Notes: generated by a model not told the origin, from the sequence alone. Numbered from the stretch's first letter, positions 17,919-21,588 are shown. The stretch is DNA of 40,696 nt from a virus (IMGVR_UViG_2541047870_000003), one strand, 5' to 3'. Numbers and translations: made by a program.

Positions 17919-17994
<76 letters not shown>

Positions 17995-17997
17995 TAT

Positions 17998-18072
<75 letters not shown>

Positions 18073-18280
18073 GTTAGAGTCTTTCAGTCTGCGATGATGG
18101 GAAATCCCGGAGTGACTGAAAGACGTTTAAGTTATGAATGATCGCTTTTTTTAGCAAAATTGCTGTGCAGAAATACTAACCTTCGGGCAGGCGATCATTC
18201 ATAAGCACTCTGCTTTTATTCCGATTAACTGTGGGTGGTTTGTTGGATAGAGTGCTTTCCTTACTGTATATATTGTTTCG

Positions 18281-18306
18281 CCCGCTTTTGCGGGCTTTTC
18301 TTTTCA
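18281..18306 (+). terminator. Intrinsic terminator (GCCCGC-tttt-GCGGGC followed by TTTTCTTTTC); candidate tR'-like terminator between tRNAs and holin
   Basis: Perfect 6-bp GC stem plus U-tract, seen directly. Confidence 0.6.
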
Positions 18307-18364: not shown

Positions 18365-18580
18365 ATGAAATCCATGGACAAAATTTCAACGGGCATTGCC
18401 TATGGCACCTCCGCAGGCAGTGCTGGCTACTGGTTTTTACAGTGGCTTGATCAGGTCAGTCCGTCACAGTGGGCTGCGATTGGTGTGCTGGGGAGTCTGG
18501 TTCTGGGCTTCCTGACTTATCTGACAAATCTGTACTTCAAAATCAGAGAAGACAAGCGTAAGGCTGCACGGGGAGAGTAA
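18365..18580 (+). CDS. S: Phage-21-type pinholin S21 with dual-start motif (Met1-Lys-Ser-Met4)
   Basis: [27 protein letters not shown]... matches S21 as recalled; two TM segments; Lys between the two Met codons. Confidence 0.85.
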
Positions 18581-18584
18581 TTCA

Positions 18585-18935
18585 ATGACTCAAAACTATG
18601 AACTGATTGTGAAAGGGATCCGCAATTTTGAGAATAAAGTTACGGTAACTTTAGCGTTACGGGACAAAAAACGCTTTGACGGTGAAATTTTTGACCTGGA
18701 CATCTCGCTGGACCGTGTTGAAGGTGCCGCGCTGGAGTTTTATGAGGCAGCAGCCAGAATGAGCATCAGACAGGTCTTCCTGGATGTTGCTGCCGGGTTA
18801 TGTGAAGGGGATGAGCAGTCGCCGGAAAAGCGCCCCGTAATTTTAGAGGCGCAGAATGTATGGATAACCTACAAAGGAAAGCTACCGGGAAGAATTACTG
18901 GTTCTCTGAAGACTCCTCCGGAATCACAACCTTAA
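18585..18935 (+). CDS. Hypothetical protein, 116 aa, inserted between holin and endolysin
   Basis: GGAGAG upstream of ATG; no recognisable motif. Confidence 0.5.
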   Translation: MTQNYELIVKGIRNFENKVTVTLALRDKKRFDGEIFDLDISLDRVEGAALEFYEAAARMSIRQVFLDVAAGLCEGDEQSPEKRPVILEAQNVWITYKGKLPGRITGSLKTPPESQP

Positions 18936-18998
18936 GTCACTGACCGGAACAGATAAACCTGTCCGTGGGCAGAAACCGATAAATCCTGATAAATATCC

Positions 18999-19532
18999 AT
19001 GAACGCAAAAATCAGATACGGCCTGTCGGCTGCCGTTCTGGCACTGATTGCCGTCGGTGCGCCCGCGCCTGATATTCTCGACCAGTTTCTGGATGAAAAA
19101 GAAGGTAACCACACAACGGCATACCGCGATGGGTCCGGCATCTGGACCATCTGTCGGGGTGCCACGATGGTGGATGGAAAACCCGTTTTTCCCGGTATGA
19201 AACTGTCGAAGGAAAAATGCGACCAGGTCAACGCCATTGAGCGTGATAAGGCGCTGGCATGGGTGGAGCGCAATATTAAAGTACCACTGACCGAGCCACA
19301 AAAAGCGGGTATAGCGTCATTCTGTCCCTATAACATTGGCCCCGGTAAGTGTTTCCCGTCGACGTTTTATAAGCGGCTGAATGCCGGTGATCGTAAGGGC
19401 GCATGCGAGGCGATTCGCTGGTGGATAAAAGATGGTGGGCGCGATTGCCGCATACGTTCAAATAACTGCTATGGACAGGTTATTCGTCGTGACCAGGAAA
19501 GCGCATTAGCCTGTTGGGGGATAGAGCAGTGA
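18999..19532 (+). CDS. R: SAR endolysin (T4-lysozyme-like muramidase with N-terminal signal-anchor-release segment), 177 aa
   Basis: Gly/Ala-rich weakly hydrophobic N-terminus [16 protein letters not shown] followed by E-x8-D-x5-T catalytic spacing ([18 protein letters not shown]). Confidence 0.85.
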
Positions 19533-19993
19533 GCAGAGTCGCCGCGATTATTTATGCTTTGGTTATCTGCATCATCGTCTGCCTGTCGTGGGCGGTCAAT
19601 CATTACCGTGATAACGCCACCGCCTACAAAGAGCAGCGCGACAAAAATGCCAGAGAACTGAAGCTGGCGAACGCGGCAATTACTGACATGCAGATGCGTC
19701 AGCGTGATGTTGCTGCGCTCGATGCAAAATACACGAAGGAGTTAGCTGATGCGAAAGCTGAAAATGATGCTCTGCGTGATGATGTTGCCGCTGGTCGTCG
19801 TCGGTTGCACATCAAAGCAGTCTGTCAGTCAGTGCGTGAAGCCACCACCGCCTCCGGCGTGGATAATGCAGCCTCCCCCCGACTGGCAGACACCGCTGAA
19901 CGGGATTATTTCACCCTCCGGGAACGACTGGTAATGATGCAGGCCCAACTTGAAGGTGCTCAGCAATACATAACCGAACAGTGTTTAAAGTAA
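19529..19993 (+). CDS. Rz: Rz-like inner-membrane spanin (i-spanin), from GTG overlapping endolysin stop
   Basis: N-terminal TM segment, coiled-coil-like Ala/Arg/Asp-rich body; start uncertain (track ORF starts 19514). Confidence 0.7.
19749..19934 (+). CDS. Rz1: Rz1-like outer-membrane lipoprotein spanin embedded in +1 frame of Rz, 61 aa
   Basis: Lipobox LVVVGC and proline-rich body (PPPPPAW, PPPDW); fully embedded in Rz. Confidence 0.7.
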
Positions 19994-20130
19994 AATCTTA
20001 ACTACAATATGATTCATTTTGATGATTGTTTCATAAGGAACAGTGAAGTAAGATCTAAGAGGAGTTAAATTTTATACAGTATAATCATAATATTGCAGCA
20101 AGGTGGTTATAATTGAAAGAATATTTAGAT

Positions 20131-21588
20131 ATGAATACATCTCATGTAAGAGTTGTTACTCATATGTGTGGGTTCCTGGTTTGGCTCTATAGTCTTTCAA
20201 TGTTGCCACCAATGGTTGTAGCATTGTTTTATAAAGAAAAAAGCCTGTTCGTTTTCTTTATAACTTTCGTTATATTTTTTTGTATTGGTGGCGGAGCGTG
20301 GTATACAACTAAGAAATCTGGCATTCAATTACGTACCCGTGATGGGTTTATTATAATTGTAATGTTTTGGATTTTGTTTTCTGTTATTAGTGCATTCCCT
20401 TTATGGATTGACTCAGAACTTAATTTAACGTTCATTGATGCTCTGTTTGAAGGGGTTTCTGGAATAACAACAACAGGAGCAACTGTAATTGATGATGTTA
20501 GTTCATTACCTCGGGCATATTTGTACTATCGGTCACAGTTAAATTTTATAGGTGGTTTAGGAGTTATTGTTCTGGCGGTTGCTGTATTGCCATTATTGGG
20601 TATTGGTGGTGCAAAGCTTTATCAGTCAGAAATGCCGGGGCCATTTAAGGATGACAAACTCACTCCCCGCCTGGCCGATACGTCACGGACACTGTGGATA
20701 ACTTATTCTTTATTAGGTATTGCTTGTATTGTCTGTTATAGACTTGCAGGAATGCCTTTGTTTGATGCTATTTGTCACGGGATTTCCACAGTTTCGCTTG
20801 GTGGTTTCTCAACTCATAGCGAGAGTATCGGATATTTTAATAACTATTTGGTTGAGCTGGTGGCTGGTTCTTTTTCCCTGCTATCGGCTTTCAACTTCAC
20901 TCTTTGGTATATTGTTATTAGCAGGAAAACGATAAAACCTTTAATCAGAGATATTGAACTTCGTTTCTTTCTGTTAATAGCCTTAGGGGTGATCATTGTT
21001 ACCTCTTTCCAGGTCTGGCATATAGGTATGTATGACTTGCATGGAAGTTTTATTCATTCGTTTTTTCTTGCCAGCTCCATGCTCACTGATAATGGTTTAG
21101 CTACGCAGGATTATGCAAGTTGGCCCACGCACACGATAGTGTTTTTGCTGTTGTCAAGTTTCTTTGGGGGATGTATAGGTTCAACTTGTGGTGGAATTAA
21201 GTCACTTCGATTTCTTATACTTTTCAAACAAAGCAAACACGAGATAAATCAGCTTTCTCATCCCAGAGCGTTGTTGAGTGTAAATGTAGGAGGGAAGATA
21301 GTTACAGATCGTGTAATGAGGTCTGTATGGAGTTTCTTTTTTCTTTATACTCTCTTCACGGTGTTTTTTATACTGGTGTTAAATGGTATGGGATATGATT
21401 TTCTTACATCATTTGCAACAGTGGCTGCATGTATTAATAATATGGGATTAGGTTTTGGGGCTACTGCATCGTCATTCGGAGTGCTTAATGACATTGCAAA
21501 ATGTTTAATGTGCATAGCTATGATTCTTGGTCGCCTTGAAATTTATCCTGTTATTATATTGTTTTCAGGTTTTTTTTGGCGCTCCTAA
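20131..21588 (+). CDS. trkG: TrkG/TrkH-family K+ uptake membrane protein, 485 aa from MNTSHVRVV
   Basis: Polytopic membrane protein; recalled as Rac TrkG; sits in a region that looks AT-rich by eye. Track ORF starts at TTG 20113. Confidence 0.85.
   Translation: MNTSHVRVVTHMCGFLVWLYSLSMLPPMVVALFYKEKSLFVFFITFVIFFCIGGGAWYTTKKSGIQLRTRDGFIIIVMFWILFSVISAFPLWIDSELNLTFIDALFEGVSGITTTGATVIDDVSSLPRAYLYYRSQLNFIGGLGVIVLAVAVLPLLGIGGAKLYQSEMPGPFKDDKLTPRLADTSRTLWITYSLLGIACIVCYRLAGMPLFDAICHGISTVSLGGFSTHSESIGYFNNYLVELVAGSFSLLSAFNFTLWYIVISRKTIKPLIRDIELRFFLLIALGVIIVTSFQVWHIGMYDLHGSFIHSFFLASSMLTDNGLATQDYASWPTHTIVFLLLSSFFGGCIGSTCGGIKSLRFLILFKQSKHEINQLSHPRALLSVNVGGKIVTDRVMRSVWSFFFLYTLFTVFFILVLNGMGYDFLTSFATVAACINNMGLGFGATASSFGVLNDIAKCLMCIAMILGRLEIYPVIILFSGFFWRS

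Follow-up and report, generated by a model that had tools for sequence, protein, structure and literature searches.

The lysis cassette of the prophage analyzed here (IMGVR_UViG_2541047870_000003; the whole stretch of 40,696 nt is referred to below as the window) holds an additional gene between its holin and lysozyme genes, which we assign with near certainty to the YdfR family (DUF1327). This family is modular, with a conserved N-domain (module A) joined to exchangeable tails, and the gene is dispensable for lysis in related phages. Going by its K-12 homolog, we tentatively propose that its product is a nonessential late cytoplasmic accessory protein whose N-domain may bind a host protein, most likely RNase E. 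We rank this reading first, followed by a modifier of lysis dosage or timing, then by other kinds of cargo, and place a functionless passenger last.

Identity of the gene

The open reading frame (ORF) begins with ATG, extends for 116 codons and terminates at a TAA stop codon according to both the ORF list and the sequence itself. The gene and its two modules are located as follows:

18585..18935, + strand: ydfR-family gene (DUF1327), 116 aa including Met (ORF list, Pfam PF07041, PHROG, RefSeq)
18585..18800, + strand: module A, aa 1-72, three beta-strands and a long helix, acidic, pI about 5 (AF2, alignment, dN/dS)
18813..18920, + strand: module B, aa 77-112, EQSPEKRPVILEAQNVWITYKGKLPGRITGSLKTPP, also given as EKRPVILEAQNVWITYKGKLPGRITGSLKTPP (alignment, AF2)

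Residues 1-112 align to positions 1-92 of the 93 in the Pfam model DUF1327 (PF07041; E 5.3e-42, 142.4 bits against a gathering cutoff of 25), and RefSeq WP_000193264.1, annotated as a "YdfR family protein", is the identical protein from a 100% identical locus. The ORF also matches PHROGs 406 and 2091. A chance ORF is ruled out by the DUF1327 score, the clusters of homologs and the dN/dS of the N-domain, and we regard the ORF as a true coding gene. Neither the gene nor its family or position is new, all three having been recorded for years by Pfam and by the annotation of the K-12 genome.

A first-pass annotation of this DNA had described the ORF as unassigned and devoid of recognizable motifs, a description that does not survive the clear Pfam and RefSeq family assignments. 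It had correctly recognized that a phage-21-type holin and a lysozyme gene are separated here by an additional well-formed, soluble ORF equipped with its own ribosome-binding site, as confirmed by the coordinates, the Shine-Dalgarno sequence and the hydropathy profile. The predicted lack of a transmembrane segment is likewise upheld, the maximum Kyte-Doolittle 19-residue mean being 1.03. Judged from its sequence, the product is predicted to be a soluble, acidic, cytoplasmic protein of 13 kDa.

The profile and structure searches that the same annotation had proposed as a check were conducted and delivered the family (DUF1327), but no function came from any of them. All five PHROG matches are of "unknown function", and none thus provides homology to a lysis-annotated family. 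A BFVD structure search with YdfR returned nothing at E <=0.001, its fold matches remaining below significance, and neither a PDB profile search nor NCBIfam produced a match for the family. Four family members searched against the PADLOC defense models had no match at E up to 1. A dsRBD-like domain, considered because of a KKxAK-like motif in some alleles, was rejected: the domain is acidic, the motif is unconserved, helix 1 is missing and the dsrm model gives no match.

The lysis cassette and its surroundings

The window is an E. coli Rac-type prophage adjoining ttcA; it contains intR, recET, kilR, racR, ydaS/T and trkG, and its complement of head and tail genes is complete. The prophage of strain VE-V10-F is nearly identical but carries IS1A between intR and xisR (L001, 2878-3647), an element that is lacking at the corresponding place in the window (about 1269-1277). 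The features surrounding ydfR are the following:

17919..18072, + strand: tRNA-Thr (UGU) and tRNA-Gly (UCC), in the late leader upstream of the lysis cassette (ARAGORN, Rfam)
18280..18295, + strand: terminator-like GC hairpin followed by a T-run, upstream of S (terminator scan)
18365..18580, + strand: S21-type class II holin (pinholin type) with Met1/Met4 dual start (PF04971, E 1.4e-35)
18570..18577, + strand: Shine-Dalgarno sequence GGGGAGAG of ydfR, within the 3' end of the holin gene (sequence reading)
18936..18998, + strand: 63-nt spacer between ydfR and the lysozyme gene (no Rfam match, no stable fold)
18999..19532, + strand: RrrQ-type phage lysozyme, 177 aa, probable SAR endolysin (PF00959)
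19514..19993, + strand: Rz i-spanin, with the RefSeq start a GTG at 19529 (PF03245, E 9e-53; RefSeq annotation)
19749-19934, + strand: Rz1 o-spanin, embedded in Rz (PF06085, E 2e-19; RefSeq annotation)

The holin is 98.6% identical to S of phage 21, and an MKSM dual start can be read in its sequence; in the phage 21 annotation, S21-71 and S21-68 arise from the Met1/Met4 dual start and represent antiholin and holin, respectively. The earlier identification of the upstream gene as an S21-type pinholin is thus borne out by PF04971, by near-identity to S21 and by the dual start. The window lysozyme is 94% identical to K-12 RrrQ and 34% identical to R21, a proven SAR endolysin. It has an E35-x8-D44-x5-T50 motif and a hydrophobic N-terminus rich in Ala and Gly (maximum 19-residue Kyte-Doolittle mean of 1.87 at residues 9-27), making it plausible that this enzyme too is a SAR endolysin.

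In phage 21 the promoter pR', a terminator and tRNAs are found upstream of S, the same layout as in the leader of the window, from which it follows that the lysis cassette heads the late operon. The position of the hairpin at 18280-18295 suggests that it is the late-operon terminator read through by Q.

Scans of the window for promoters and terminators found neither a promoter-like site between S and ydfR nor a terminator after ydfR, and the GC content of ydfR (0.46-0.50) equals that of the neighboring S and R genes. Lacking its own promoter and terminator and sharing the composition of its neighbors, ydfR is not a classical moron, and this candidate was rejected. It resembles the lambdoid morons (bor and lom of lambda, trkG of Rac) in being a dispensable, patchily distributed extra gene of the late region, and differs from them in its missing promoter and terminator and in its neighbor-like composition, the GC content of trkG being 0.31-0.43. 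The trkG gene, a classic Rac cargo gene encoding a TrkH-family potassium transporter (PF02386, 484 bits), is located at 20113-21588, directly after Rz/Rz1, and its GC content is clearly below that of the lysis genes (about 0.5).

Several cassettes lack ydfR altogether. S abuts R in phage 21 and in DLP12 of K-12, and in VT2-Sakai an RrrQ-type lysozyme gene starts 4 nt after S. A clean 414-nt indel between S and R separates the window from VT2-Sakai in a three-way DNA alignment; it comprises ydfR and its 63-nt trailer and is flanked by homologous S 3' and R 5' sequence. With such flanks, it is structurally accurate to describe this block as inserted between S and R. Phage 21 and the Sakai/933W-type phages are functional for lysis. 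Since these well-studied phages manage without the 414-nt block, ydfR lies outside the core lysis machinery and is dispensable for lysis in related phages.

Distribution and linkage to the holin

DNA resembling ydfR is found in 4314 of 5426 complete Escherichia coli genomes (in 1903 of them at a coverage of at least 80%), and the whole cassette is present at a coverage of at least 80% in 2183 complete E. coli genomes. Among phage records, 101 have a ydfR homolog as against 438 with an S21-type holin, and IMG/VR holds more than 586 ydfR loci. The first-pass annotation had viewed the ORF as an interruption of a phage-21-type cassette; this is right insofar as phage 21 lacks ydfR, but the arrangement is by no means unusual, being the gene order of Qin and widespread among the E. 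coli genomes just mentioned.

In sequence space and in host range the family is narrow. It comprises 319 clusters at 90% identity, and an exhaustive profile search of 1.84 billion representatives recovered 88 clusters, all of them DUF1327 or its fragments. The only species-representative genomes with the family are those of E. coli, E. ruysiae, E. albertii and Shigella, along with one probably mis-binned scaffold. The YdfR family is thus small and nearly restricted to lambdoid prophages of Escherichia and Shigella. The exceptional scaffold (L023), labeled as part of a Veillonella parvula metagenome-assembled genome (MAG), carries a Qin-like ydfR cassette whose best segment is 80% identical to the query, and its scores equal those of L022, a Qin-type locus of E. 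coli; mis-binning of an E. coli scaffold into that MAG is almost certain.

Cassette geometry was examined in a sample of 87 IMG/VR loci, 86 of which include upstream sequence. The commonest form, found in 70 of the 87, is the 116-aa protein composed of modules A and B in a geometry identical to that of the window. In the window the holin stop codon occupies 18578-18580 and the ydfR ATG follows 4 nt downstream, a gap that recurs in Qin, in six to seven annotated phages and in all 86 sampled loci with upstream sequence. The distance from ydfR to the downstream lysozyme gene is variable, ranging from -83 to +1241 nt across the sampled loci. Phage phiSTEC1575-Stx2k (L016, 1281-3299) has an S21-type holin and ydfR followed by two more holin-like genes and an M15 metallopeptidase, with no lysozyme. 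The presence of a different lysin set behind the same gene pair indicates that ydfR travels with the holin and not with the lysin.

Modular architecture and distant relatives

An AF2 model of module A, based on a diverse alignment, consists of three antiparallel strands and one long helix (pLDDT 85.7). Among 22 diverse members Y53-E54 is invariant and Y5 nearly so, and the pI of the module is 4.4-5.4 in most members, an acidity more in keeping with an inhibitor that binds proteins or mimics nucleic acid than with a basic RNA binder. Most pairs have a module A dN/dS of about 0.17-0.42 at dS up to about 2, indicative of purifying selection; a few very close alleles from Stx phages exceed 1, on few substitutions. 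Module B is nearly invariant wherever present (alignment columns 81-112) and is modeled by AF2 as disordered, with a pLDDT below 50. It occurs without module A in one protein (P0154), and neither module B nor module C alone has a family match, module B being covered only within the DUF1327 match. Other alleles, 176 and 183 aa long, end in a helical tail of ~65 aa, and still others carry larger extensions (263-287 aa); in some Stx-phage alleles of 263-268 aa (L003, 2501-3307; L017, 1501-2292) the C-terminal regions are unrelated and without a family match.

The best-known relative, YdfR of E. coli K-12 (b1555, P76160), is encoded by the Qin prophage in the same order as in the window (essQ-ydfR-rrrQ-rzpQ/rzoQ), with ydfR 4 nt after the S21-type holin gene essQ. 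The two proteins are 80% identical over aa 1-74 and then diverge completely: K-12 YdfR has 103 aa, a basic tail and no module B, whereas the window protein is of the 116-aa A-B form and is followed by the 63-nt spacer. The stretch coding for the K-12 tail (L002, 5055-5150, minus strand) is homologous to the spacer and leader between ydfR and R in other phages, and the K-12 ydfR stop codon overlaps the rrrQ start. As the Qin reading frame runs into spacer-homologous DNA, the K-12-specific tail was probably once noncoding sequence.

More distant relatives consist of module A alone. Found in Yersinia mollaretii, Sodalis ligni and metagenomes, these proteins are 72-94 aa long and about 25-30% identical, and all match PF07041. 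Their genes are on the late strand in lambda-like tail-tip modules instead of lysis cassettes. Their place among M, L, K, I and J varies: some precede L, others follow it, and others lie between I and J. No viral locus was found for one distant DUF1327 member. The stand-alone genes were located as follows:

L005, 3001-3231: stand-alone DUF1327 gene
L006, 5001-5219: stand-alone DUF1327 gene
L008, 4695-4925: stand-alone DUF1327 gene
L009, 3788-4018: stand-alone DUF1327 gene
L011, 4642-4926: stand-alone DUF1327 gene

The occurrence of distant homologs at varying places in tail modules indicates that the domain is an accessory element of late operons and is not intrinsically bound to lysis. The first-pass annotation had suggested a lysis regulator or a moron, and had held that such a proposal would suffer if the ORF were absent or disrupted in related functional prophages whose lysis is unchanged, or if it were homologous to a known unrelated moron family. 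Both observations largely apply, the gene being absent from functional phage 21 and VT2-Sakai and belonging to a known family with distant members in tail modules.

One explanation of these patterns is that the ORF has no function and is kept merely by being wedged between selected genes. Many database members are frameshifted, truncated or fused, the K-12 tail is apparently read-through of former spacer DNA, and related phages dispense with the gene, all of which would be expected of such a passenger. The purifying selection on module A speaks against it, as do the retention of the fold and of the Y-E motif out to the Yersinia and Sodalis homologs and the intactness of the 116-aa form, with identical geometry, in most of the sampled loci. 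We consider a passenger highly improbable.

A second explanation treats ydfR as cargo unrelated to lysis or RNA decay, settled at permissive sites of late operons: a lysogenic-conversion, counter-defense or superinfection factor, or a small acidic inhibitor of some other host protein. The different positions of the family fit this well (after S in Escherichia, among the tail genes M, L, K, I and J elsewhere), and so do its modular, often exchanged tails, its mosaic allelic classes and the dN/dS values above 1 between some close Stx-phage alleles, which involve few substitutions. It is opposed by the missing promoter and terminator, the neighbor-like GC content, the lack of a PADLOC match and fold matches that stay below significance. 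Counter-defense genes, moreover, are usually early rather than late. K-12 ydfR has been reported to be induced by cold stress, as a cargo gene might be, yet it is essentially silent in uninduced K-12, where almost no RNA-seq reads map to it (PMC13232886). On balance, cargo of this kind appears unlikely.

Takeover of the Shine-Dalgarno sequence

The Shine-Dalgarno sequence GGGGAGAG is located 7-9 nt 5' of the ydfR ATG and is kept in all seven of the other ydfR loci compared. The lysozyme gene of VT2-Sakai relies on this same GGGGAGAG at the end of S, a site that in the cassettes carrying ydfR is used by ydfR. The last 27 nt of the spacer (18972-18998), directly before the lysozyme ATG, form an AU-rich leader without a Shine-Dalgarno sequence (CCGATAAATCCTGATAAATATCC, with a tandem GATAAAT). 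This leader is conserved in nearly all of the ydfR-carrying cassettes inspected (the window, L003, L004, L015, L017 and L019-L105), the exceptions being the Qin-type loci and L021, which have diverged versions. As to an RNA element in the spacer, no Rfam family was matched and folding was not better than that of shuffled sequence (z = 0.32). Read from sequence, an endolysin gene left with such a leader should be expressed at a changed dosage.

These observations lend some appeal to a role in lysis timing, in which YdfR would bind the cytoplasmic tail of the pinholin or the membrane-tethered SAR endolysin, or in which the gene would act in cis: with the lysozyme gene moved away from the Shine-Dalgarno sequence at the holin end, endolysin synthesis would be lowered or delayed. 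The gene follows an S21-type holin at 4 nt in 86/86 loci, and does so even where the M15 peptidase set of phiSTEC1575 replaces the lysozyme; it is co-translated from a strong Shine-Dalgarno sequence at the end of S; and the lysozyme leader of ydfR cassettes lacks the GGGGAGAG that is available in VT2-Sakai. Accessory lysis regulators are known in several phages, namely the S21-71 antiholin, RI and RIII of T4, LydB of P1 and LysA/LysB of P2, and T4 RIII shows that a holin can have a soluble regulator in the cytoplasm. Like these, ydfR is an extra small gene in a lysis cassette; unlike them it belongs to a family also found outside lysis cassettes, and YdfR has no transmembrane segment and no homology to any of them.

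Phage 21 and phages of the VT2-Sakai type lyse without ydfR, the dual start of S21 already supplies an antiholin, distant module A homologs reside in tail modules, and no PHROG match is lysis-annotated; each of these counts against a regulator of lysis timing. Overexpression of K-12 ydfR, furthermore, had no effect on growth (PMC13232886). Deletion of K-12 ydfR did score in an envelope-leakiness screen, where the gene appears in the supplementary hit lists only and is absent from the main text (PMC3879167). A polar effect on rrrQ, exerted by the resistance cassette, is a likely cause of that score. Taking both sides together, we view a lysis-timing regulator as doubtful, if somewhat less so than unrelated cargo.

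A possible modulator of RNase E

Phage proteins directed at RNase E are well documented: Srd of T4 binds the N-terminal half of the enzyme and stimulates it, Dip (gp37) of phiKZ is acidic and blocks its RNA-binding sites, and further modulators include the gp0.7 kinase of phage T7 and the host proteins RraA, RraB and RapZ. Module A shares its acidity with phiKZ Dip. No sequence or fold homology of YdfR to a known RNase E-binding regulator was found. [quoted passage not shown]

This association, published in 2026, came to light in a bacterial two-hybrid screen baited with RNase G, from which residues 1-72 of K-12 YdfR were recovered three times, and the fragment gave a stronger signal with RNase E constructs than with RNase G (PMC13232886). 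A fusion of full-length K-12 YdfR was positive only with Rne 1-597 and not with Rne 1-498 or 1-415, and Rne 1-598-FLAG co-eluted with Strep-YdfR from lysates (PMC13232886). DNase-resistant nucleic acid co-purified with Strep-YdfR as well, and since the lysate had not been treated with nuclease, RNA may bridge YdfR and RNase E (PMC13232886). Besides leaving growth unaffected, overexpression of K-12 ydfR altered few transcripts (PMC13232886). The interaction is known for the K-12 variant only, whose basic tail the window protein lacks; the interacting segment, aa 1-72, lies in the part that is 80% identical between the two proteins.

On these grounds we tentatively prefer a YdfR that acts through RNase E. 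The window ydfR shares the late transcript of the lysis genes, and its translation starts from the strong Shine-Dalgarno sequence at the end of S. Module A, as a protein-interaction domain, would bind host RNase E through that enzyme's N-terminal half and, with less strength, RNase G as well. In the late phase of infection YdfR might then modulate the decay or processing of host RNA, for instance by shielding the long late mRNA or channeling it differently. The strong conservation of module B is not explained by this reading, and the constant position right after the holin could equally indicate a holin-related role.

The two roles could also be one. As an RNase E modulator encoded second on the late transcript, YdfR might steer the cleavage of late and lysis mRNA, for instance at the AU-rich leader, and so couple RNA-decay capacity to endolysin dosage and lysis timing, with the copies in tail modules doing likewise for tail mRNAs. 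We regard this combined scheme as a long shot, less probable than cargo but still ahead of a functionless passenger.

Implications

The function at issue is that of a y-gene spread over hundreds of Shiga-toxin and other lambdoid prophages. To what was known of it, the present survey adds the modularity of the protein, the tight linkage of its gene to the holin, the takeover of the Shine-Dalgarno sequence and the distant homologs in tail modules. If the interaction with RNase E is a natural one, temperate coliphages would carry a late modulator of RNA decay inside their lysis cassette, and a true role of this kind would bear on the expression of late genes and of Stx and on the timing of lysis.
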